Source of the DNA: a virus
Direction: 5' to 3' (one strand)
IMG/VR virus record: IMGVR_UViG_3300020158_000335
Span: 1 to 64,000 of that record
DNA length: 64,000 bases
Within the stretch, counting starts at the first letter, position 1; each line of letters begins with the position of its first letter. Made by a program: the position numbers and the translations under genes. Below are positions 1-32,051 of this stretch, one piece after another. Below the pieces are notes generated by a model. It searched no databases. It saw only the letters and a program-made list of their open reading frames with translations, and was not told the DNA's origin.

Positions 1-1212
1 ATGGCTGGTTGGCAAAGATCAGATTATAGAGGTGTCCGTTTTCGTGAACATGATACCAGAACGCATGGTATTACGAAAGATAAATATTTTGTGATACGAT
101 ACCAATTTAATGGGAAACGATATGGGGAATCGTTAGGTTGGGCATCGGAGGGAATGAGCGCAAAAAAAGCGTTTCTGATACTGGCGGAGCTGAAACAAAA
201 TCAGGCCACAAGTACACCACCATTTACACTAAGAGAAAAACTGTCTATCGAACATGCGCGACGTGATTCTGAAGAACGAGAAAAGATTCAGACAGAATCC
301 ATAAATATTACATTCAAAACATTTTTTGAAAATTCTTATTTGCCTATCCAGAGAACCCATAAACGTAAACGATCATTGATACCTGAAACGGGACAAGCCG
401 AAAACTGGATTTTCCCGGTTGTTGGGTATATTCCGATGAAAGATATATCCAGTTTCCATATCGAACGAATAAAAAAGAACTTGCTTGACGCTGGCAGGTC
501 ACCACGAACAATACAGTATTGCCTCGCCACAATCCGGCAGGTTTGGAACCATGCACGGCGAGCCGGGGTTGTTTCTGGCGATTCACCCACACTGAATGTT
601 AAAATACCAAAATTTGATAATCGCCGGGAGCGGTATCTCAGCCCGACTGAATGTGACAATCTGCTTGAAGGATTGAAAAGACATTCTATCACAACGTACC
701 AGATAGCGACTGTATCCCTGGATACCGGAATGAGGTTCGCTGAGATAACGAGCCTTCAATGGCAGAATATTGATCTTGTCCGGGAGTCAATATCTATCAT
801 GGATACTAAGTCAGGTAAAAACCGCACTGTTTATATGACAGATAGAGTTAATGTATTGTTCTCGGGGATGAAAAACACCGGGCCTGATGCGCTGGTATTC
901 ACTGACCGAAACGGGGGCATGATCAAACAGATCAGTAATGTATTTGATATCGTTGTGGATAGACTGATGCTGAATGCAGGGATAAACGATAACAGATTAA
1001 AATGCGTATTCCATTCTTTGAGACACACACACGCCAGCCGATTACTCGAATCTGGTGCTGATATTTATCGCGTAAAGGAGATGCTGGGCCATGCAAGCGT
1101 TACCACCACTGAACGCTACAGCCATATCACTGCTGATAGGCTGCGGAGCGCGATTAAAGATATGGAAAAAATGAACCTTTCGAATGTGATCCCTATAAGA
1201 AAAAGCGGGTGA
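1..1212 (+). CDS. int: Tyrosine recombinase (phage integrase)
   Basis: N-terminal arm-binding-like region; catalytic motifs TGMRFAE (R), KSG (K), HSLRH (HxxR), LGH and TERYSH (Y). Confidence 0.95.
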   Translation: MAGWQRSDYRGVRFREHDTRTHGITKDKYFVIRYQFNGKRYGESLGWASEGMSAKKAFLILAELKQNQATSTPPFTLREKLSIEHARRDSEEREKIQTESINITFKTFFENSYLPIQRTHKRKRSLIPETGQAENWIFPVVGYIPMKDISSFHIERIKKNLLDAGRSPRTIQYCLATIRQVWNHARRAGVVSGDSPTLNVKIPKFDNRRERYLSPTECDNLLEGLKRHSITTYQIATVSLDTGMRFAEITSLQWQNIDLVRESISIMDTKSGKNRTVYMTDRVNVLFSGMKNTGPDALVFTDRNGGMIKQISNVFDIVVDRLMLNAGINDNRLKCVFHSLRHTHASRLLESGADIYRVKEMLGHASVTTTERYSHITADRLRSAIKDMEKMNLSNVIPIRKSG

Positions 1213-3143: not shown

Positions 3144-3329
3144 TCATTTATCGTCCATTGATTCTGGCACCTCGCCAGTTCTGAGTGCAGTGTAAACACT
3201 TGAGAACAAAGAAATGATACGATCATCAGTGGCGGATGGTGTGATAATGGCAATCCCTTTGAGCAGCGTAAGGATTAAATAAATACTCATCCAATTTTCG
3301 CCCACTATTTTCAAAAGCCATGCGTCCAT
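3144..3329 (-). CDS. Small membrane protein, holin-like
   Basis: One TM helix followed by ITPSATDD. Confidence 0.45.
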   Translation of the reverse strand: MDAWLLKIVGENWMSIYLILTLLKGIAIITPSATDDRIISLFSSVYTALRTGEVPESMDDK

Positions 3330-3331
3330 TT

Positions 3332-3535
3332 TTACTCCGTAAATTCTGCAATTCTATATGATAGTATTGCAGAATATTCTCTCATTGTGTGAAGTTGTTT
3401 TTTTAATAACTCCAGGTGATTTGGAGCTATATCGTCATGTTTTCTACCGAGAAACATGTCCAGATTAAAAATCTTTTCAGCAAGTTGTCTCTGTTCATCA
3501 ATAACTCTTTTCTGCCAGTCTTTCATATTTCCCAT
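3332..3535 (-). CDS. Conserved small phage protein (crAss001_48-like)
   Basis: WQKRV.DE...L.EKI..L..F and LL.KQL..M.EY..IL..RI pattern. Confidence 0.6.
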   Translation of the reverse strand: MGNMKDWQKRVIDEQRQLAEKIFNLDMFLGRKHDDIAPNHLELLKKQLHTMREYSAILSYRIAEFTE

Positions 3536-3737: not shown

Positions 3738-3980
3738 TTACATCTCCCTGGGTGAAAGTCGCAGTTTAACTATTCCAACAGTTTTGTTTGTGGAAGCGAA
3801 TTTACCCCTGGCTGTTTGTGCTGGATAGTGCAAAAATTTCTTGACATCCTGATAATACTCGTTTGGATAATCGGTGTAAGTGTAGTATTCTACAGGCGGT
3901 GCCGTGGAATCATCTTCAAAATACTCTATGTAAGTTTCATGCGTTTTGATAGGATTTAGTACCATATTTTCACCGTCCAT
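3738..3980 (-). CDS. Hypothetical protein
   Basis: ORF in operon context with GAGG before the start. Confidence 0.4.
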   Translation of the reverse strand: MDGENMVLNPIKTHETYIEYFEDDSTAPPVEYYTYTDYPNEYYQDVKKFLHYPAQTARGKFASTNKTVGIVKLRLSPREM

Positions 3981-21422: not shown

Positions 21423-21760
21423 GGCTGTACCGTTTTCTTGATTTCAATATATTTTTCAGTCGGTTGAATCACCGGTGAAACAGCCTGAATTTCATCCGTG
21501 ATTGCCTTTATGATTTTGATAAACCGCTCCGGCTCTTCACCGTTGAATTTTCCGGCGATAAGGTCAGCAAGCTTCTGGTTCTGCTGAGCGGCTTCTGGTT
21601 GAAGGTCAATTTGTTCGTTCAGTTTGGCGAGGGCCGACTTAAACTCCTTTTGAGCTTCACGCTTTGCTGAAAAACTAAGCCCGCTGGATGCAAGCTCAGT
21701 TCGTTTTTGCGCCACTATCGCCTGCAATGTCCGTTTTTCTTTAAATCCAAGTGCCATCAC
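21419..21760 (-). CDS. ddrA: DdrA-like protein
   Basis: 113 aa between darA and ddrB with a repeated L(G/S)F.xKR helical motif. Confidence 0.6.
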   Translation of the reverse strand: MMALGFKEKRTLQAIVAQKRTELASSGLSFSAKREAQKEFKSALAKLNEQIDLQPEAAQQNQKLADLIAGKFNGEEPERFIKIIKAITDEIQAVSPVIQPTEKYIEIKKTVQP

Positions 21761-24246
21761 ATCACCTTTTTAGCTTCCTCGTTTAACAAACCGGTTAAAT
21801 AATCAGCGACGGTATTCAGAAGCCCATCGTATTTCTCCATCAAGCCTGCGGTTTCCAGTGTTGCGGCTGCCTCATCCAGTATCCTGCCATATCCATCAGT
21901 ATCCGAATCGTGAGCGCCGGACATCAGGTCATTCAGGGTGGCGATTGCGCTCTTGACATCCGCATCTTCTGGGGGTATATTATCCCCAAGGTTGCTCTCA
22001 TTCGAGCGTCTGCTGTCTTCGGGCTGGCCGGGTTCTTCCACGGGGGCAGGAAACGAAGGTGATTGGTCAGGATCATCAGCGTGCGCGACACGCAGGAGCA
22101 ACTTTCTTCCACCTCTCTGCTCATAAGGTGTTTTGCTTTTTGGTTTGGCATCTTCAAGAAACCATGTTGTAACGCCGTAATATCCTCCGTTATTTTGCAA
22201 CTCAACTGCTGCGAATTTACCACGTCCATTTCGTTTTACAAGCAACAGCCTCCCGTTAGGTTGTTCGTAAATTTCAGTGTAATGGCGGGTGATGTCCGAA
22301 AGTGCATCTATTTCGTCATTATATCCGTATGCCTTGAATTCCTTGATTCTGTCTTCTGCAATATGTGACTTACCATAAGCGCCGCCTTCCTCAAGTCGGA
22401 TAGGTGCGGATGGGAATCTTCCCTCGCTGGCCGTTTCTATATCGGGGCCGATACTCCCAAAATCAGAAGTTCCATCAGGCGCGGGAATGAATAGACTTCC
22501 AGGGGTTTCGACTTTATCCACTTCCGGCGCAATCTGTTCCGGAGATAAAGATGATTGAGCGAGTTCGGGATATTCTGCGATAACCATTGTATCTACAGGT
22601 TCCCCTGCGGTTACGGCCCGTTTGACACTCCTGGCATGATTTCCTTCACTGATTGATATTATTTGAGTCCTGGCCTCAAGTTCCTTCGCTATTGCTTGTG
22701 GTATAGCTGCATCGGCGCGAAGCCCCGCGAGTGATTCGCCAGCACGAAGCCCTGTAATCGCTTGGTTAATAAGGTCGAGCGCTCTTTCCGCTGCTCCGTC
22801 TTCTTTCAGCCTGCGTTTGGGGCTTGTCCATAAGCCATAATTAGAAGGTCGGTTCCTATATTTTCCGTCAGGATATTCGGCTATTATACTCTTTGCGCTT
22901 TTAGCTTCCTGTTCAAGCATATAAATCAGATAATATTTTTTCGTCATTTCCCAGGGTTCCGGTACGTCCGGTTCCGGCATCACAAATTCCGGGACAACCG
23001 GCGTGACTTCCGGCGTGACGACTTCCGGGGCAACAGGCGTGACTTCCGGCCTTGGCGCTTTCCCACTGGTGTACAAATCTTCAACGTATTTATCCCATTG
23101 CGCCTGCGTGGCTTCACCTTTTTGAAGTAATTCCCACATTTGACCAGTCCACTCCTGATCTTGAGACCGAACCCCTGGCACCGCCATTTCCCCTACTTCT
23201 CTCAATCTGACAAACTCAAGTCGCTTGACTTCCCTCTCATTGGGGATTTTATCTTCCTTGATTTTAGCCATTATCCCCTTCAAGTCGTTTATAAACCCGT
23301 CCTGTTTCATCATGTCAAATGCTTGCTTATCTATCCCCAGGGAAAGAGCTTCATCTTTAAGCGCCTCAAATTCCGAATCCATCGCCGCCTGCTTCGCCGC
23401 CGTTTCCGCCGCCATCGCCCGCGCCGCTTCATCCGCCTTGGCCTTCACCTGCAATGCCGCAAGCTGGTTTTCCAAATCAGCATTTATACCCTGCTGTTTT
23501 TCAATCAAGCCTTGCGTCATGGTAATCTTTGTTTGGGTGATTTCCGCAGCAGACTGTTGATCCCTAAGCCCGTTCATCAGAGCGACATTTTCAGTGGACA
23601 ATTTATCAGCATCCGACTTCAAGGTCACAAGCTGTTCATTTTGAGCCTTCACGTCTTTTTGTGTCGTCTGAAACCTTGCAGAGTTCTTCACCACAAGCTG
23701 AGCTATACGTTTGCCCACCTCTTCCAGCGAAATCTCACCCTCGCCCTCTGGTGACACCACAAGCGTAATATCCCGTTTATTCAGCAGCCAGCGGTAAGCA
23801 ATAATCTCATCATCAGGGCCGATCTTCTTGGCGTCCCCGCTCGGGGAATGAAACACAATCGTAATGGCCTGCCCATCGGAAAACGGAATCTGAGCGGTAA
23901 CATTTGCAAACAATCCGGTTTTCCGTGGTTTTCCGATAATTGCCTCAGCCGGTGCGATCCCTTCAGGCAGATGTTTTGCAAACACCCGGGCAAGCGCTCT
24001 CATCCTGCTGTCTGTCTGTGAGAATCTCTTGACTGTAACCGCCTCGTAAATCCCTTCTTCCAGAAACTCGCCGTCATTGTACTCATCGTCCATTTCTGCA
24101 AGAGTCGCACATTCCAGAATCAGCCTGTCTGTCTCATGGGTATTGGTCAACGCCATATAAGCTCGAACCAACCTGTCGGGACCGAACCCTTTAACGAACA
24201 AATCAAGCCCGATTTTGTGCAATTTGCCTTCTGAGTATGGGTTCAT
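21757..24246 (-). CDS. darA: DarA-like head-cargo protein with an inserted BECR-like domain
   Basis: FSDGQAITIVFHSPSGD..I...D.I.AYRWLLNKRDIT.VVSP N-terminal domain, coiled coil, DarA-like C-terminal helices. Confidence 0.85.
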   Translation of the reverse strand: MNPYSEGKLHKIGLDLFVKGFGPDRLVRAYMALTNTHETDRLILECATLAEMDDEYNDGEFLEEGIYEAVTVKRFSQTDSRMRALARVFAKHLPEGIAPAEAIIGKPRKTGLFANVTAQIPFSDGQAITIVFHSPSGDAKKIGPDDEIIAYRWLLNKRDITLVVSPEGEGEISLEEVGKRIAQLVVKNSARFQTTQKDVKAQNEQLVTLKSDADKLSTENVALMNGLRDQQSAAEITQTKITMTQGLIEKQQGINADLENQLAALQVKAKADEAARAMAAETAAKQAAMDSEFEALKDEALSLGIDKQAFDMMKQDGFINDLKGIMAKIKEDKIPNEREVKRLEFVRLREVGEMAVPGVRSQDQEWTGQMWELLQKGEATQAQWDKYVEDLYTSGKAPRPEVTPVAPEVVTPEVTPVVPEFVMPEPDVPEPWEMTKKYYLIYMLEQEAKSAKSIIAEYPDGKYRNRPSNYGLWTSPKRRLKEDGAAERALDLINQAITGLRAGESLAGLRADAAIPQAIAKELEARTQIISISEGNHARSVKRAVTAGEPVDTMVIAEYPELAQSSLSPEQIAPEVDKVETPGSLFIPAPDGTSDFGSIGPDIETASEGRFPSAPIRLEEGGAYGKSHIAEDRIKEFKAYGYNDEIDALSDITRHYTEIYEQPNGRLLLVKRNGRGKFAAVELQNNGGYYGVTTWFLEDAKPKSKTPYEQRGGRKLLLRVAHADDPDQSPSFPAPVEEPGQPEDSRRSNESNLGDNIPPEDADVKSAIATLNDLMSGAHDSDTDGYGRILDEAAATLETAGLMEKYDGLLNTVADYLTGLLNEEAKKVM

Positions 24247-24842
24247 TATGCGCCCTCCTGAGCGTTCTGAATCATGTCAATATCAAGATTCAGCTTAACG
24301 GTTTTGGCCTGCTCGTTTTTAAGCTGTGTTTCAAGCCCTGCAAGTTGATATTGAAGAGTTGTAACCTGGCCAGCCTGGGCGGTGGTCTCCGCCATGATGT
24401 TTTCGTTCGTGCCTTTAAGCTGTGCGACGGTTGCCGTAACTGTGTCAACCTGCGCTGATATGCTGGTATTGACCGCCTTTATCTTTGGGATTTTAACAAT
24501 CCCGGCGTTTTTCTCTTTGGCTTTTGTGAATGCCGGTTCATTTGCCTTGACGTAGGTTATCACCTCATCAACAGCCTTGGCGATATCATCAACAGACTTG
24601 ATCGGAATGACCTTTGCGTTAAGTTTGACCTGAAAAACGCCGCCGCCAGCCTTGATTTTTACAGTTATTTTCTGGCCGGACGCAAAAACCAACGTGGCGG
24701 TTTTCATCAAAAACCCGGATTCGCGTTTGGCCTTGTTCGTGGCTTCAACATCTTCTACCGGGATGCCTGCCGTTTCAAATTTTTTAAGCACCGGCTTTAA
24801 CCCGGCCTTGTCGAATTTCTCAAAATCTATGGTTAAAGCCAT
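24246..24842 (-). CDS. hdf: Hdf (homolog of DarA fragment)
   Basis: IDF.KF.K.GLK, KRESG..KTA and GQK..V.I...G.VFQVKLN.K.IP followed by a coiled coil; directly upstream of darA. Confidence 0.8.
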   Translation of the reverse strand: MALTIDFEKFDKAGLKPVLKKFETAGIPVEDVEATNKAKRESGFLMKTATLVFASGQKITVKIKAGGGVFQVKLNAKVIPIKSVDDIAKAVDEVITYVKANEPAFTKAKEKNAGIVKIPKIKAVNTSISAQVDTVTATVAQLKGTNENIMAETTAQAGQVTTLQYQLAGLETQLKNEQAKTVKLNLDIDMIQNAQEGA

Positions 24843-24930: not shown

Positions 24931-25446
24931 TTACCATGATACAGCCATCACATCGTTGATGCTATGACAGGATTTAATGGCAGAGTATAATTGATTTTTC
25001 TTGTACAAAACTGCCTGGAAATGGGCTCCAACTTGCACCCCGACAGATATCATTTCCGCCAAAGATAAAACATGAGATTGGTTGTCATAATCAATAAATG
25101 CTATCTCGGGCACCTCGGCAAGCTGCATCATCGTCACAGCAGCGACCATATTTGCGCGGTCTTTGTCCTCGCAATCGTACCGAATACCAGATGGTTGCAC
25201 TACACATCCCAGCGAAAGCTCTGATATTGAGCAGCCCTTGATAATCTCTTTCTGGATTCCCATAGCAAAATCAAGGTCGATAAGCTGCCCATCATCAGGG
25301 ATGCGATTGACATCGTAGCTGTACCCTGCTTCTGTTTGATCTTCAGGCGACATCTGCGTAAGTTCTTCCAGCCTGATATTGTATGGATACAGGATCGAAC
25401 TCTGCAACCGCTGGATAACAGGGATATTCTTCGCATATACTCTCAT
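24931..25446 (-). CDS. DUF4376-like tail fibre assembly protein
   Basis: YDC...DR.N, FIDYDN....LS.AEM and C-terminal I..V.AVSW. Confidence 0.7.
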   Translation of the reverse strand: MRVYAKNIPVIQRLQSSILYPYNIRLEELTQMSPEDQTEAGYSYDVNRIPDDGQLIDLDFAMGIQKEIIKGCSISELSLGCVVQPSGIRYDCEDKDRANMVAAVTMMQLAEVPEIAFIDYDNQSHVLSLAEMISVGVQVGAHFQAVLYKKNQLYSAIKSCHSINDVMAVSW

Positions 25447-25464
25447 GTATTTACTCCTTCGTCT

Positions 25465-25788
25465 TCACGATAAAACATAATATCGGTAGTGTTTCTGTAT
25501 TGTGGACAAAAACGGGATATGCTCTTTGTATTTCTCTATTTGCCGTATCAGCACCTCGCTGCCAGTAAAAAATACATGAGTTTTTTTGCCCAGGTTAAAT
25601 TGCACTGTTAAGCATTTGCCATGTTTTCTCTCTGTAAATTTGCTATCGGTTATCCTGTATCCAATTATTTCTATTTCACGGTTTACGATATCCGCTATCT
25701 TAAGTTTGTCGCCGTCAAGAATATGTTCATCTGCCGCAAAGTCAGAGAATTTTCGCACATTCGTCGGGTTTTCAGTAGCCTCCGGCAT
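25465..25788 (-). CDS. Small DGR-associated protein overlapping the RT 3' end (candidate non-Avd accessory factor)
   Basis: KFSDF...GDK.KI.DIVN.EI.I and VFFTGS.VL.Q...PF..TI; beta-rich, unlike helical Avd; start codon uncertain. Confidence 0.6.
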   Translation of the reverse strand: MPEATENPTNVRKFSDFAADEHILDGDKLKIADIVNREIEIIGYRITDSKFTERKHGKCLTVQFNLGKKTHVFFTGSEVLIRQIEKYKEHIPFLSTIQKHYRYYVLS

Positions 25789-26756
25789 TGTGATATCCAT
25801 AAGTTGTATCCATTCCCGTGTATTAACCATCCGTAATAACTCATTACGGATTTTACGCACGACCTAATATCTGTGGCATCATCCAAGAAGACACGAATTT
25901 TGCGTTTAAAGTTTTTTGAAATTGATTTGCGTATCAAGGTAAACTTTCCAAAAAAACGATAGCCTAAAAAATCAATGCCCCGTTCATCGGATGGGAATAC
26001 CTGCCAGTTGCTTTTGATTTCAAGCTTCAACTCTGAACTCATATATTTCCTGATATCACTAAATAGACTGTGAAGAAAAGCCTTGTCATTATGCAATATG
26101 ACAAGATCGTCGCAATATCTGGCGTAATATCTGATGTTCTTTTTCTCTTTCAGCCAATGGTCAAAAGGAGATAAATATATGTTAGCAAAGTACTGAGACA
26201 GGTAATTACCAATAGGTACGCCTTCTGCGCTATCAACAATTGTATCCAATAGCCATAAAGTATCTGCACATTTTATCTTTTTTCTGATGATATTTTTCAA
26301 ACAGTCATGATTGACGGAAGGATAAAACTTTTTAATATCAAGTTTTAAACAGTATTTGGTTCCGTCATTGTCTTTTAGAAAATCTTTCATTCGGATCACG
26401 CCATCATGTATTCCACGGCCTGCCATTGATGCGTATGTGTCTCGTATAAATGTTTTCATCCATATCGGTTCAAGAACCTGCATGATACAGTGGTGGATGA
26501 TACGATCAGGAAAATACGGGAGTTTAAAAATTTCCCTTTCTTTTCCTCTCTCAGTCCTTTTGAATACCTGATATTGTGCATTTTTGAACACTTTATTTTT
26601 TAAACTATTATGAATTTGCACAAAATATTTTTCTGGATCGCGATCAACCATTTTGACGTCTGAATAATTATTTTTCCCACGCCTTGCGTTCTTGTGCGCC
26701 AGCCGGATGTTATCCATGTCGTAAATTTTATGGTATAAATTACCAAAACGTTTCAT
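25695..26756 (-). CDS. DGR reverse transcriptase
   Basis: GVPIGNYLSQ (DGR-type SQ motif), RYCDD, LKLDIKKFYPSV and GIDFLGY. Confidence 0.95.
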   Translation of the reverse strand: MKRFGNLYHKIYDMDNIRLAHKNARRGKNNYSDVKMVDRDPEKYFVQIHNSLKNKVFKNAQYQVFKRTERGKEREIFKLPYFPDRIIHHCIMQVLEPIWMKTFIRDTYASMAGRGIHDGVIRMKDFLKDNDGTKYCLKLDIKKFYPSVNHDCLKNIIRKKIKCADTLWLLDTIVDSAEGVPIGNYLSQYFANIYLSPFDHWLKEKKNIRYYARYCDDLVILHNDKAFLHSLFSDIRKYMSSELKLEIKSNWQVFPSDERGIDFLGYRFFGKFTLIRKSISKNFKRKIRVFLDDATDIRSCVKSVMSYYGWLIHGNGYNLWISQCRRLLKTRRMCENSLTLRQMNIFLTATNLR

Positions 26757-26880
26757 ATATCTTTTGCCTGATTCCACAAGAGAGTCTTCGCCGTTTGGCT
26801 ACCAACACCCTTTATGTTTTCGTTTTGTGTTTTGCCAAGAGGCAAGGTTGAGCCAGCGCAGTAAAAAAAATAGAACCAGA

Positions 26881-27010
26881 TAGCTGACTGCCCCGCAATA
26901 TTCGTATTGCAATTCGCCGCCGCATTATTCGCATTACGGTAAGTGACTCCCGCATTAGCGCTATTATTCAGATTGCCCCCTGCATAAAGCGCCTGCCAAC
27001 TCGCTGCCGA
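26881..27010 (-). ncRNA. DGR template repeat (TR)
   Basis: 130-bp ungapped match to 27044-27173; all 26 mismatches are at TR adenines on the coding strand; 10 AAT codons. Confidence 0.95.
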
Positions 27011-27038
27011 ATTGCCAACTCAACCCTAAATCAAAAAA

Positions 27039-28475
27039 TCAGGCAGCCGACCGCCCCGCAATACCCGCATCGCAACCCGCCGCCGCATTACCCGCATCAC
27101 GGTAAGCGACCCCCGCACGAGCGCCATAAGTCAGAGCGCCCCCCGCAGAAAGCGCCCGCCAACCCGCCGCCGACGGTTGGTAGTAATAATCTGTAACGAA
27201 TGTAGAGCTACTACCGTTTGCAACCGAAGATGGTAAAAATGTTCCGTCGAAAAGCGTCTGCTGATAGCCAGTTGTTCCAAGCGGGGTTATTCCAAGCGAA
27301 GAATAATTAGTCACACTTTCATCAGTGAACAAAGCAGGGTTATTACAAACATATACCCCGGACGGAAATAGAAAATCCACTCCATCCACCCATTTCCATA
27401 GATGCCCATAAAAATTTTCTATCCCATAAAAAGAATTAGCAACAACCATATCAGATGCCTGAACGTATGCACACTTATTCGCGTTAGCGACCCCGTATTT
27501 GACTGATCCGCAATTGTTCCCCAGTACATTTGTGACACCAGTTTTACATATTTTCGTAATATCCCACGGTGCCCCCTCTGTATATCCTGGCAACATCAAC
27601 TGTGAATTCCAGTTTTTGTATCTGGTTAGATATAAGAGAATAATCGCCTCACCCATCCAGTAATCGTATTGGTAAAAAGCTCCGTCGGTTGCTTGACGTC
27701 GCATTGTCCGACTGAAAGTTGATAATGGCAAGTATCCAGATACAGACCGTATTTTATCTCCTGATAGATACGATTGTGTTGTAGTTCCGTGAATGTACGC
27801 ACTACTGCGGTACAAAACGCCCTCATAAGCTGAGCAGTATTTGTAATCCACGGGTGTAGCCAACCCGCCTGAGAAAAATATTGGGTGAACAACCGCTGTA
27901 ACTACTGATCCGTTTGATTTTGTATAGCTGAACGCACCATACGAGATCAAAGCATACATAAAATTACCATCATTAAACAGCGCATAATAAAATTTAGGGA
28001 TTTGCACCATGACGTTACCATCTGCACCTGTCAAAGTCGCAGCCGTCCCGTCCAGCTTCTTTGTTGAGTCATTTGGATGTAAATAGTAATTAAATGCGCC
28101 GGTGGTGTGCGCCAGCAGACAACGCTTCATCTGCTCTTGGATCGGAAAATTCTGATAGTCGTATTCAAGCAGAGCTCCGTTAACCTGAATGACACCCCTC
28201 ATTGTATCATTCACAAAATCCCACTTAACGCCATAAGCATAATTATTGCCAGCGTCAAAATTACCATTTAATTTTTGGATTGCTTGAAGAACTGTGTCTG
28301 AAGCAGCTACCGTTCCGGCTCCGGATGTGTAGCCGGTTAAGACGTTTGCAGCCTCCAGTGCAGCAAAGTTTTCGTCAATCTCGCCATAACGGTCATTCCA
28401 CAACGCCGCGACCGCTGGCTGTCGTGGAGAACTCAAAATGGGCGTAATCATAGGATGCGGTAATATGGACGGCAT
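27039..28475 (-). CDS. DGR target: receptor-binding or tail fibre protein with C-type lectin-like fold
   Basis: G.VMVQIPKFY, SAYEG and YGIENFYGHLWKWVDG motifs; C-terminal VR GG....GA.AG...IAGR. Confidence 0.9.
   Translation of the reverse strand: MPSILPHPMITPILSSPRQPAVAALWNDRYGEIDENFAALEAANVLTGYTSGAGTVAASDTVLQAIQKLNGNFDAGNNYAYGVKWDFVNDTMRGVIQVNGALLEYDYQNFPIQEQMKRCLLAHTTGAFNYYLHPNDSTKKLDGTAATLTGADGNVMVQIPKFYYALFNDGNFMYALISYGAFSYTKSNGSVVTAVVHPIFFSGGLATPVDYKYCSAYEGVLYRSSAYIHGTTTQSYLSGDKIRSVSGYLPLSTFSRTMRRQATDGAFYQYDYWMGEAIILLYLTRYKNWNSQLMLPGYTEGAPWDITKICKTGVTNVLGNNCGSVKYGVANANKCAYVQASDMVVANSFYGIENFYGHLWKWVDGVDFLFPSGVYVCNNPALFTDESVTNYSSLGITPLGTTGYQQTLFDGTFLPSSVANGSSSTFVTDYYYQPSAAGWRALSAGGALTYGARAGVAYRDAGNAAAGCDAGIAGRSAA
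27044..27173 (-). repeat. DGR variable repeat (VR)
   Basis: 3' end of 27039..28475; offset 163 bp from TR. Confidence 0.95.
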
Positions 28476-28755: not shown

Positions 28756-29790
28756 TTAAACAGCAGTATAATAATGATAACCGCATGAAATAGTGAAATT
28801 GAACGACGGATCACTCCCTGAGAACAGAATACCCCGCAACGACACTAATGGTGGGAAAAAGACGGTTGGGCCAGGGTTAGAGACGCTAATTGACACGGCT
28901 GCTCCGGTTAAGTAGCAGGTGCTATGCGCCGTACACGAGTTCGATGCCGCACCCGAACCAACGCATGAGTATGGGATACACAATATAGGTGCGTTTGCAT
29001 TATAGTTCCAATTATAAACTCCGCTTCCGCCCACGAGCGCAGCCGCAGCCCCTGTCCCCATTGAAGAGAAAAAACCTGCTCCAGCACCACTACCTAATGC
29101 TGTAATAATGGACAACGCAAAAGGCTGCAATGCTGATTCAACAAAAGTTGCGACGGCAGCGCTTGAGCATATAGACCTGAGACAACTGGCGGATATAGCC
29201 ACGGCAGAGAAAGCATTCAAATCTTGCATCGTAGAGTTGCCACATGCGCCCAGTGTGTCAATACCTCTTCCCACACTATATGCTGCTCCCAGAAATATTG
29301 GGCGAGCGACACTGGAGGCAGCAATCACAGTCATGGCGGTGAGGGACATAGAGATAGCAGCCATAGCCACACTTGATGCTGCGGTAGCCGTCATCGCAGT
29401 GCTGGACGCGGCCAGCAACCCCATTGCGACACTGGAGGCAGCGATCGCAGTCATCGCAGTGCTCGATGCTACAAAAACAGGCATGGTAATGTCATCAATG
29501 TCCAAGATGGCCTCCATAGCATCGCTGGAGGCAGCAATCGCGGTCATAGCCACACTCGACGCCGATATCTCAGACATAGTTCGTAAATCATTCATGGCTG
29601 GTGTCGATAACCTAAACGCGCTGTTAAAAATAGCTCCCATTACTCCTGCATAATCGCCAGATGCGACCGCCCAAGCAATTGATCCTGTATTTACCCCTTG
29701 TATCAGTACACCTGAGCAAACGAGAGCAGATGATAATCTTATTTGATCGCTGATAATCGTTGATGATGATGGTTGCGGTATGCTTATCAC
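28756..29790 (-). CDS. Tail-associated protein with 11-aa ASSxAMxAIA repeats
   Basis: About 7 near-tandem 33-nt repeats, roughly 29310-29570. Confidence 0.65.
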   Translation of the reverse strand: MISIPQPSSSTIISDQIRLSSALVCSGVLIQGVNTGSIAWAVASGDYAGVMGAIFNSAFRLSTPAMNDLRTMSEISASSVAMTAIAASSDAMEAILDIDDITMPVFVASSTAMTAIAASSVAMGLLAASSTAMTATAASSVAMAAISMSLTAMTVIAASSVARPIFLGAAYSVGRGIDTLGACGNSTMQDLNAFSAVAISASCLRSICSSAAVATFVESALQPFALSIITALGSGAGAGFFSSMGTGAAAALVGGSGVYNWNYNANAPILCIPYSCVGSGAASNSCTAHSTCYLTGAAVSISVSNPGPTVFFPPLVSLRGILFSGSDPSFNFTISCGYHYYTAV

Positions 29791-30137
29791 GTTGTCACCT
29801 CCTTATTGCCGGAAAGATGAAACGTAATCTTGCTCGCTGTCCCGGCCTTTACCCGGATCGTCTCGGTTGCCTTGGCATGAATCGAATATTCATGAGGCGC
29901 TCCGCCCACGGCGGCAATAGCCACATCATAAGCAACCCAGTCCGTATTGGTGGCGGCATTATCGCCGTGCGCTGCCGGACAATGGGCAATTCGGTAGCTG
30001 GACTCTTCGGCGTCCTGGTTGCTGATTCTTAACACCCCGTCGAGTACGGTACCGGCTGGCACCGCATATAATTGCGCCTCGGAAGTCGATGCAGGGAACA
30101 GCGTAGCTATAACGCCTCTTGTGTTTGTAACTGACAT
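29787..30137 (-). CDS. Small tail fibre-associated protein
   Basis: LY.VPA.T, I.N and SG.E beta-sandwich pattern; AGGAGG ribosome-binding site. Confidence 0.55.
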   Translation of the reverse strand: MSVTNTRGVIATLFPASTSEAQLYAVPAGTVLDGVLRISNQDAEESSYRIAHCPAAHGDNAATNTDWVAYDVAIAAVGGAPHEYSIHAKATETIRVKAGTASKITFHLSGNKEVTT

Positions 30138-30148
30138 AAAATACCTCC

Positions 30149-30367
30149 TTAAAAGGCAAACATATTAAAGAAAGATGGGAAAGAATCAGTTTGCAACTGT
30201 GTCACAACTGGGTTTATCGCTGCGATAGACTCATTGATTCCAGCTATAGCTTCATCTACCGTGTCAAAGTTTTCGTCAATTTCCGAATATCGCGTATTCC
30301 ATAGACTGGGTGCTGCGGGCGGTGCGGTATCTGGTATCGGTGTAATCGGGTAATGGGGTAGTGTCAT
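30149..30367 (-). CDS. Short fibre attachment protein
   Basis: Shares LPH.ITPI...PA...LWN.RY.EIDENF with the N-terminus of the DGR target. Confidence 0.6.
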   Translation of the reverse strand: MTLPHYPITPIPDTAPPAAPSLWNTRYSEIDENFDTVDEAIAGINESIAAINPVVTQLQTDSFPSFFNMFAF

Positions 30368-30381
30368 ATATTCACCTCACA

Positions 30382-30759
30382 TTAAAAAACAAACGTTATA
30401 ACTGTTTCGAATTCTTCATCAGATTGTTTGATCTTTGGCGCTGAGTTACGGATTCCAACCATATCGCCATCAATTTTTATTCCAAACTCACTGACGGTTT
30501 CACCTACTAAATCGGCTTGCGCCAGTCTTCCGGTTATCATGACATTCCCGTCAATTGTCACCGAAATATCCGCCTCCGGGATTGTCGTTTCGATCAACTG
30601 GTGATGCAATGCAATCTGATCCGCCTCAATTGCTATCGGCAAATCATCCGCATCATGCCCGCCGTCACCGAATACGGCAGTTGCCCCGGCAATGGCTTTT
30701 GCCGAAAACACTGATACAAGTAGCGGTTTTAATAAAATCGTACTGGCTGTATTTGACAT
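30382..30759 (-). CDS. P1 gpR-like baseplate/fibre adaptor
   Basis: FGDGGH, L.G..SE.G and PKIK...E motifs; follows gene 16. Confidence 0.6.
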   Translation of the reverse strand: MSNTASTILLKPLLVSVFSAKAIAGATAVFGDGGHDADDLPIAIEADQIALHHQLIETTIPEADISVTIDGNVMITGRLAQADLVGETVSEFGIKIDGDMVGIRNSAPKIKQSDEEFETVITFVF

Positions 30760-30788: not shown

Positions 30789-32051
30789 TTACAGGCCGGG
30801 ACCAAAATCCCAAGTGCCGTCGATGAGTAAACTTCCATCTAAATATGTTGCAAATATGGACACAGGTTCAAATGATATTTCAGCGATGGATATTATTGTC
30901 TGCATTGCAGCCACCGTATGATCCGAGACACATTCAACAAATCCAGTGACAAATTGTCTCGACGTTGTGCCTCCGAATTCAACAGGAATATCAAACGCTG
31001 TTTTCCATTTTGTGCTGCCGTAACCAACATAAATCTTCCGGGACCCGTCAACAGGCCAAGTACCATCCACGAACATCGACCATACCGACACAGGAGCATA
31101 TATCCCGGACTTCGCCGTTATGTGCATCGGCCCAGAAGATACCGGATACCGATACTTAATATCCCCATTATCCGAACACATAAACCGGGAACCGTCGATT
31201 TCCCAGGTGCCGTCCAGTATGAGATAACAACAAAACACAGGGATTGTGTTCCGTGATGTAATCACCTGCAAATCCGTTGTGTCCCCCCAAATAACAGGGA
31301 ATTCAACCACAATAGACCAAATCAGCCCGTCAAACACAATATGAAGCGGTTTGGTAAGTGCTACCCGTGCCCGTGCGGTAGATTCAATCAGCTCCGGTGC
31401 TGCTACATTGGCCTCATCAATGTAAAGTTTCCCGCGTGATGTCATGTAACACGACACACACACAGTAACATCTGTTGGGGCCTCGACCGCCCAGGACCCG
31501 TCCAGGCTACAGGATACGTTTGTCAACCATTCAGGCTGGACTGTCCGCCCGCTTGTGATGGTTACAGACAGATGATAACTGTCTGTTTCTCGGACAGTCC
31601 ACGTACCATCCAGCCGCAGTGGCGTTGTCGTTTCCCATGATTCAGAGCCTCGAAGTATCTCTTCCTCGGTATAAAACTCGCCGTCGATATACTCACGGTC
31701 GCTTATCGCATACAGGGGACGCCACTGCATAACGACATCAGGACAAGCACGCCTGATTGACGCCGTAAGCGGCACTAACGAATCCTTTTGAAGCAGCTCG
31801 ACTCTACGCTGAACAACCGCCATCGGGATACTGTCATCAAGGATATCAATATCGTAATACCTGCCAAGCTCAGATAATATCCGATGCTTGTCTTCATCGA
31901 CTGCGGTAAATATCGAACGAAGCCCGATTTGCCTGGCCAGAAGCGGGTCAAAGTTTTCTTCCCAAAGCTGCTGGATCGTCTCAGCGAACTCAGTCCAGCG
32001 AGGGGTTTCTGATTTTACAGGCGATAATCTTGTTTTTAGCCAATTATCCAT
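30789..32051 (-). CDS. P1 gp16-like baseplate protein with LDGxW repeats
   Basis: WLK.RLSP.K...W.EFA, RSIFT..ED and KPLHIVFDG; repeated (L/V/I)DG(T/S)W. Confidence 0.7.
   Translation of the reverse strand: MDNWLKTRLSPVKSETPRWTEFAETIQQLWEENFDPLLARQIGLRSIFTAVDEDKHRILSELGRYYDIDILDDSIPMAVVQRRVELLQKDSLVPLTASIRRACPDVVMQWRPLYAISDREYIDGEFYTEEEILRGSESWETTTPLRLDGTWTVRETDSYHLSVTITSGRTVQPEWLTNVSCSLDGSWAVEAPTDVTVCVSCYMTSRGKLYIDEANVAAPELIESTARARVALTKPLHIVFDGLIWSIVVEFPVIWGDTTDLQVITSRNTIPVFCCYLILDGTWEIDGSRFMCSDNGDIKYRYPVSSGPMHITAKSGIYAPVSVWSMFVDGTWPVDGSRKIYVGYGSTKWKTAFDIPVEFGGTTSRQFVTGFVECVSDHTVAAMQTIISIAEISFEPVSIFATYLDGSLLIDGTWDFGPGL

Follow-up and report, generated by a model that had tools for sequence, protein, structure and literature searches.

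How does a relative of phage P1 vary the receptor-binding end of its tail fibers when the place of the P1 invertible segment is taken by another element? The question arises from the first 64 kb of the 75,154-nt provirus record IMGVR_UViG_3300020158_000335 from IMG/VR (73% complete), a stretch of 64,000 nt that we call the window and in which the minus strand carries nearly all genes. Positions 24931-28475 contain a diversity-generating retroelement (DGR), in the interval where P1 has the invertase gene cin and its invertible C segment. The initial annotation placed the element there and proposed that this lineage had swapped two-state inversion for adenine hypermutation. Our comparisons favor another history: with a probability of roughly 80%, this is a complete DGR of the class lacking Avd, located in the distal tail-fiber cluster, which was swapped in for the body of an ordinary fiber gene and is one of several modules found at this site. 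Labels such as L007 designate related loci collected for comparison.

Anatomy of the DGR cassette

The variable repeat (VR, 27044-27173) encodes the last 43 residues of a 478-amino acid (aa) tail-fiber or receptor-binding protein, the DGR target (27039-28475), and ends at most one codon before its stop codon; the template repeat (TR, 26881-27010) begins 33 nt after the end of the VR. These and all the features described below are on the minus strand, unless indicated otherwise. The two repeats were first detected as a direct repeat and resolved on the coding strand, where their 130-nt core contains 26 mismatches, all 26 of them at adenines of the TR (which has 34; hypergeometric p about 1e-20), so that the differences are confined to TR adenines and the VR lies within an open reading frame (ORF). 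Read in the frame of the target, the TR includes nine AAT codons. Most of the changes from TR to VR (21/26) are A-to-G; we considered this bias as a feature special to the window and rejected it, since it is a habit of the whole reverse transcriptase (RT) clade, in which G accounts for 64% of 943 changes. No second TR-like or VR-like pair was found anywhere in the 75-kb record.

Non-adenine differences between both repeats start right past the last adenine site (T/C and G/A at alignment positions 140 and 144), which is as expected for initiation of mutagenic homing (IMH) versus IMH* ends, and we consider the assignment of the 3′ end of the VR to IMH/IMH* as a candidate. A GC-rich hairpin followed by a run of T, resembling a terminator (27041-27056), overlaps this end of the VR as well as the stop codon of the target.

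The RT gene (25695-26777; phrog_1423, E 8.5e-121; Pfam RVT_1, E 7.5e-19), whose true start is likely the ATG at 26756, codes for a product with the boxes GNYLSQ (GxxxSQ) and YCDD of DGR-clade RTs. Searches of metagenomes retrieved 102 relatives, of which the 80 that we kept are 45-71% identical, and adenine-specific TR/VR pairs were present in 45 of the 85 loci of RT relatives that were scanned. Among named phages, the matches were to crAss-like phages, Psychrobacillus phage Perkons, Yersinia phage fEV-1 and archaeal viruses.

Between the TR and the RT gene there is a structured spacer RNA (26764-26849) that aligns over the full model length with the RT-17 RNA from Rfam (RF03020), with a score of 40.3 bits, 0.1 below the gathering score of 40.4 (E 2.8e-5). 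In the relatives, the first hairpin of this spacer (TTGCC-TCTT-GGCAA) carries compensatory changes; RNAalifold recovered no consensus structure from the alignment of the whole TR-RT spacer, and the TR-spacer RNA folded alone was no better than its shuffles (z -0.89). RT-17 may thus be the spacer RNA of this class of DGRs.

Overlapping the non-conserved 3′ end of the RT gene, positions 25465-25788 encode a 107-aa protein with a predicted oligonucleotide/oligosaccharide-binding (OB) fold, whose AlphaFold2 (AF2) model (predicted local distance difference test, pLDDT, 83.5) gave OB-fold matches with Z 5-7.2 to SSB, PriB, RPA and a domain of RuvBL2; a Foldseek search of this protein against PDB returned nothing at E 0.001 or better. 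Of 83 loci with the RT, 18 have a homolog of this small gene adjoining it, located in some between the target and RT genes (the "avd position") and in others just after the RT gene, and from this association and the model we regard the product as a probable accessory factor or cofactor of the class. Its identification with CH1 was rejected, given that it has 107 aa and pI 8.7 versus the 160-169 aa and pI 4.7 of CH1 (PMC5758913).

No ORF of the region had a Pfam match to Avd, whereas the same search found bAvd in locus L009 (E 9.6e-27); moreover, the 33-nt gap between VR and TR leaves no room for an avd gene (PF22296 / PF05635), which in the BPP-1 type stands next to the TR. The relatives of the RT, the small OB-fold gene and the RT-17-like spacer together assign the cassette to the large Avd-less class of DGRs; Wu et al. 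(2018) counted 26% of DGRs without avd (PMC5758913).

Following the paradigm of BPP-1, an RNA spanning the TR and the RT-17-like spacer would be copied by the RT, probably with the assistance of the OB-fold protein; template adenines would be miscopied, in this RT clade being mostly read as G, and the resulting cDNA would replace the VR, recoding up to 23 codons within the last 43 residues of the target.

The target protein and its adaptor

The target belongs to phrog_5302 ("tail protein", E 1.8e-60) and can be divided into an adaptor at the N-terminus (about residues 1-79; 28236-28475), a body, and a variable tip at the C-terminus. Using tblastn, we found matches to "tail protein" genes of crAss-like phages and to g27, a "putative tail fiber protein" gene, of Yersinia phage fEV-1; a search with the protein in one genome per species yielded no relative. 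Alignment to its closest relatives, which are 47-50% identical, starts no earlier than residue 80, and no P1 structural genes were found near them. Conversely, residues 1-79 carry the motif ITPIP..LWN.R..EIDENF, which also opens the fibers of the sister P1-like phages L007, L009, L011, and L015. The target thus seems to be chimeric, with an imported body diversified by the DGR joined to the docking adaptor of the resident fiber. Separately, two in-frame stops under translation table 11 interrupt the closest full-length homolog, from L005 (10001-11335; 47% identity, from residue 26), which is either a pseudogene or part of a recoded phage.

The same adaptor motif stands alone in a 72-aa ORF upstream of the target (o72, 30149-30367), 62% identical to the start of the 627-aa fiber of L007, and this ORF is probably a remnant or a spare copy of the 5′ end of the resident fiber gene. 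A 37-nt direct repeat (78%) links the 5′ end of the target gene (28364-28400) with o72 (30265-30301). The two copies bracket a pair of further ORFs, and might have been left by insertion of the cassette or serve as a substrate for deletions.

These two putatively fiber-associated ORFs, o116 (29787-30137) and o344 (28756-29790), are coupled through a GTGA overlap (28756-30137 in all) and show a weak match to phrog_7809 ("tail fiber", E 3.6e-7). ORF o344 is composed of 60-nt repeats encoding ASSxAMxAIA units; among 5.8 billion proteins it has no full-length relatives, only partial and unnamed matches to the repeat region, and neither o116 nor o344 was found in any related locus. A 181-aa ORF on the plus strand (29108-29653), opposite o344, mirrors its repeats and is probably spurious.

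As to structure, the ESM Atlas model of the target (predicted template modeling score 0.80) was better than the AF2 model, and the neighbors of residues 240-478 in that atlas are C-terminal tips of viral tail-fiber proteins, in clusters with Phage_tail_fib and Mtd_N; in some of these clusters only a minority of the members has Mtd_N (14%) or FGE-sulfatase (29%). TaqVP (5VF4) is a C-type-lectin DGR protein (PMC11054128); the profile match of our target to it reaches only E 1, through the motifs GxxWxWV and GWR..GG, and a BLASTP comparison with the TaqVP-like target of L009 gave E 1e-4 over 61 residues.

Downstream of the small OB-fold gene, the last gene of the region (24931-25446) encodes a DUF4376 protein (Pfam DUF4376, E 2.7e-12; phrog_1348, "tail fiber protein"), 38% identical to the product of the gene that comes after the fiber in L007. 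Its N-terminal part matches ORFs adjoining the target homologs in L004 and L005. Judging from its family and location, it is probably a tail-fiber assembly or chaperone protein, in the functional place of P1 U.

Does the DGR still operate on the fiber tip?

With all its parts apparently intact, the DGR of the window is probably functional and may still be active. Several observations weigh against our overall reading of the cassette. The population check of the VR was done on assembled Logan contigs, which are consensus sequences, and no differences in the VR were seen in them: over 8 kb, the contigs of three additional runs, from lakes or freshwater, matched the window at 100% identity, including one that covers the VR without a change, although these identical consensus contigs may come from the same site or source sample. 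The Z values of the OB-fold protein are middling (at most 7.2), another ORF separates its gene from the RT gene in L002, and a structural instead of an enzymatic role is possible for it. ORFs o72, o116, and o344 are extra ORFs that the DGR reading does not explain. Lastly, the AF2 model of the target (pLDDT 51, from a 19-sequence alignment) is too low to call a fold, and the target is tied weakly, at the level of motifs, to the C-type-lectin/TaqVP fold.

The identity of the VR consensus in several lake samples is what would be seen if the DGR were a frozen relic, which mutated the VR formerly and whose fiber tip is now fixed. Similarly, the cassette relatives L002 and L003, from two metagenomes, are identical including the VR, and cassettes often lose their RT, as seen in L011 and in epsilon crAss-like phages, where RT genes are often missing from the cassettes (PMC11054128). 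Nevertheless, the reading frame and catalytic boxes of the RT, the spacer RNA and the partner gene are all intact, and TR and VR are 100% identical at the 104 positions without mismatch. In addition, a stable consensus is expected of a prophage if retrohoming occurs mainly in lytic growth. Contigs from two other runs break inside the VR (27132/27137 and 27126-27149), which is compatible with heterogeneity of the VR within the samples; this is a weak hint, since breaks occur elsewhere too. A search of IMG/VR and JGI metagenomes, excluding the own records, with an exact 48-nt anchor beside the VR retrieved no other VR allele. On balance, we consider it rather unlikely that the element is a relic, and favor a complete DGR.

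The composition of the fiber region also allows the target to be seen as an accessory lectin, either in the virion (a second or side fiber, or a particle-adhesion protein) or outside it, with o116 or o344 as the true receptor-binding protein. Indeed, two ORFs bear the adaptor, o72 as well as the target, another two are present in the region, and the target of the sister locus L009 has no adaptor and follows a separate, adaptor-bearing fiber of 301 aa. Such a role is nonetheless improbable, because the target itself bears the baseplate-side adaptor, isolated phages have members of its family annotated as tail protein or tail fiber, the cassette is followed by the chaperone-like DUF4376 gene, o72 lacks a body, and o344 is devoid of full-length relatives. 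We retain the target as the diversified fiber of a complete DGR, for which a presence in the virion and a role as host-range determinant are plausible.

The DGR occupies a variable slot of a P1-like backbone

The order of the backbone genes, pmgC-tub-pmgB-sit-pmgA-bplA-16 ... hdf-darA-ddrA, matches the P1-like synteny group of Punavirus, and the deduced products are 29-37% identical to their P1 counterparts, in the same order, according to PHROG matches and direct comparison. Megablast with a 10-kb segment revealed no match in 50,697 phage or 72,556 plasmid records, and BplA from the window is only 32% identical to that of P1 and falls in a separate, well-supported clade, outside of the genus Punavirus proper. 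The phage appears to be a distant, temperate, freshwater relative of P1, with about 30% protein identity to it. Genes for a tyrosine integrase, a ParA-like partition protein, a DnaB-like helicase and a replication initiator were also noted in the record (window 1-1212, plus strand; L018 10841-11860, 2972-4387 and 4605-5612); both an integrated prophage and a plasmid prophage, like P1, are possible.

The upstream conserved border of the fiber slot is the homolog of gene 16 (30789-32051; phrog_2015, E 8.6e-28), encoding a baseplate or tail-tube protein with 29% identity to the N-terminus of P1 gp16 and located after bplA, as in P1. It is followed by a 125-aa gene (30382-30759) conserved in L007 (69% identity) and in L009/L011 (39%). 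The initial annotation called this gene R, a name that holds by position and not by similarity: its match to P1 R is weak, spanning 29 residues with E 0.002 in a two-sequence comparison, and Pfam and PHROG searches with it gave no match at all. The downstream border (21757-24842) consists of hdf (24246-24842; phrog_1620 Hdf-like, E 3.1e-31) and darA (21757-24246; Pfam DarA_N, E 6.6e-26), with ddrA next; the products of hdf and darA are 30-35% identical to their P1 counterparts.

The gene order that had been read from the sequence (16, R, fiber genes, target with VR, TR, RT, small gene, DUF4376, hdf, darA) was confirmed in full, with all parts on the minus strand. The annotation of P1 reads 16, R, S, U, C segment [U′, Sv′], cin, lydC, lydA, lydB, hdf, darA, in agreement with the layout given in the initial annotation. 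The DGR thus lies within the variable interval that separates gene 16/R from hdf-darA and that in P1 is filled with S-U, the C segment and cin, and both positions are equivalent.

The absence of an invertase, likewise advanced earlier, was borne out: no serine invertase/resolvase domain (PF00239) was found in the 64-kb window or in the whole 75,154-nt record, using a search with positive controls in 12 of 14 genomes; the record is 73% complete, so that it may miss a distant copy. Tblastn did not find cin at this locus, and inverted repeats in the fiber region amounted to one weak instance, with none convincing and no cix-like sites. A switch of the Cin/Gin/Hin type, with a PF00239 protein and inverted cix sites flanking alternative fiber ends, was accordingly not found.

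We then surveyed P1-like loci for cin versus DGR, as the initial annotation suggested, by anchoring them on bplA and scoring the content between bplA and hdf. Among the 22 slot-spanning loci of P1 proper (bplA at least 99% identical), seven had a whole cin gene, five had cin remnants and ten had none. Five more distant loci of enterobacterial type (from Serratia, Xenorhabdus, and others) contained S/U-like fibers and no cin (0/5). The clade of the window (bplA 44-57% identical), which includes a Syntrophorhabdaceae metagenome-assembled genome (MAG) and a "delta proteobacterium" MAG, showed neither cin (0/10) nor lyd genes in its ten loci. The slot contains a 627-aa fiber plus a DUF4376 gene in L007 and L019, an ordinary fiber in L015, a P2-H-like fiber plus Tfa in L010, a cassette with only a weak Tfa-like match in L022, an orphan TaqVP-like protein in L011, and a canonical Avd-type DGR in L008/L009 and L020/L021.

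The nearest relatives of the window are L007, L019, and L015. In a quick maximum-likelihood tree of bplA (IQ-TREE; identical sequences collapsed, and L031 left out because of a stop in the translation of its high-scoring segment pair), the window groups with loci devoid of DGRs, the two types of DGR are in different subclades, and cin is found only inside P1 proper. From these comparisons, the slot between 16/R and (lyd-)hdf-darA reads as a swap site for interchangeable receptor-binding modules. Retained in the window are the adaptor remnant o72 and a DUF4376 gene, both resembling parts of the plain L007/L019 cassette, and cin is confined to P1 proper; it is therefore most likely that the DGR cassette replaced the body of an ordinary fiber gene, with an imported target-TR-RT-OB module taking its place. 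That an ancestor had a P1-type Cin/cix invertible fiber segment directly replaced by the DGR, as originally proposed, fits the shared position and the lack of an invertase in the record, but is very improbable considering that cin is absent from all window-clade and intermediate loci, that even within P1 proper ten of the 22 complete slots lack it, that the window retains the elements of a plain fiber cassette, and that neither cix-like inverted repeats nor fragments of cin were found.

A second class of DGRs in the same slot

The DGRs of L008/L009 and L020/L021 are of the Avd type, with a TaqVP-like target (E 5e-70 to 5VF4) and bAvd. In L009, the target follows the separate adaptor-bearing fiber mentioned above. 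Loci L008 and L009, from two metagenomes, are 99.2% identical, and over 9.4 kb including the slot they differ at 17 positions, 16 of them in the VR and all 16 at TR adenines, which is direct evidence that a DGR in this slot was recently active in a sister lineage. The RTs of L009 (16413-17441) and L021 (16249-17274) have the catalytic box YMDN instead of YxDD.

The slot of L011, in the chromosome of the Syntrophorhabdaceae MAG, contains a TaqVP-like protein (14727-15740) 86% identical to the target of L009, with hdf directly after it; we found no avd, TR or RT between them, and this protein is either an orphan target left after loss of the DGR or representative of a state before its acquisition.

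The cleanest positional match to P1 cin is plasmid pMR24a from a cultured isolate, Moritella sp. 24 (NZ_CP056124.1 in RefSeq, with avd annotated; loci L175/L176). Here, a cassette with TaqVP-like target, avd, TR (3854-3969) and RT, and the VR at 3295-3410, lies exactly between an S-like fiber gene and lydA-lydB-hdf-darA. The RTs of these Avd-type DGRs, pMR24a included, are 35-38% identical to that of the window, which points to independent acquisition of both types.

The location of both types in different subclades of the bplA tree implies at least two gains of DGRs. We propose, tentatively and at somewhat less than even odds, that the 16/R-(lyd-)hdf-darA site is a plug-in site that independently captured two unrelated DGR classes, one Avd-type with a TaqVP-like target and the other Avd-less with an OB-fold partner and an RT-17 RNA, through recombination at the adaptor that left o72 as a scar and produced a chimeric, self-docking target.

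Comparison with known systems

P1 exemplifies, in textbook fashion, how inversion of DNA can switch host range; the wider family, mostly environmental, would use fiber swaps and, repeatedly, DGRs, and the slot offers a natural comparison of strategies for switching tropism at a single genome position. Its conserved borders and the short docking adaptor provide a defined chassis for studying the exchange of receptor-binding modules, and the OB-fold protein is a candidate for the cofactor needs of the Avd-less class. Fibers diversified by DGRs (BPP-1), Avd-less DGRs, the RT-17 motif and a DGR in this slot (pMR24a, RefSeq) were already on record, and our literature search found no paper linking DGRs with P1-like phages. 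What is added is modest: among the loci examined, the first P1-like example of an Avd-less DGR that has an OB-fold partner and an RT-17-like RNA, the apparently chimeric self-docking target, and evidence for the capture of DGRs by the slot on at least two occasions.

Diversification of the tail fiber of phage BPP-1 is the founding example of the mechanism. The cassette of BPP-1 (mtd-avd-TR-brt) and that of the window are both phage DGRs with the attributes for diversifying the C-terminal tip of a tail fiber by adenine-specific mutagenic retrohoming, and they share a VR at the 3′ end of the target gene and a TR upstream of the RT gene; the candidate IMH/IMH* ends of the window, with the hairpin where its VR stops, would be a further resemblance. 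They differ in that the window has no Avd, with the small OB-fold protein after the RT instead, its TR lies only 33 nt past the VR, its target belongs to phrog_5302, and the host phage is a P1-type myovirus.

The RT of the window is in the same clade (36-51% identity) as those from crAss-like phages, Perkons, fEV-1 (g27 tail fiber, g29 RT) and Methanosarcina virus MetMV, and crAss-like phages, fEV-1 and MetMV also share its target family. Those DGRs are found in unrelated phage backbones, whereas the window cassette stands between 16/R and hdf-darA and its target has gained the N-terminal adaptor of P1-like fibers. The DGRs of epsilon crAss-like phages, a separate RT group, are arranged in the order target-VR, TR, RT (PMC11054128), and in the scheme of Wu et al. 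(2018) the window cassette corresponds to architecture A, or is "Lineage 3"-like (PMC5758913).

The Cin/cix C segment of P1 (compare Mu Gin and p15B Min) has the location of the window DGR, after 16-R-S and before the lyd/hdf-darA operon, and presumably the same purpose, to vary the receptor-binding end of the fiber. The two work by unrelated mechanisms: the serine invertase Cin flips two prefabricated S/U ends, whereas we found in the window no invertase, cix sites or alternative fiber ends, and no evolutionary link between both systems. Further parallels are pMR24a, L008/L009, and L020/L021, which are, like the window, P1-like elements with a DGR in the same slot; theirs are Avd-type DGRs with a TaqVP-like (5VF4) target, whereas that of the window is Avd-less.

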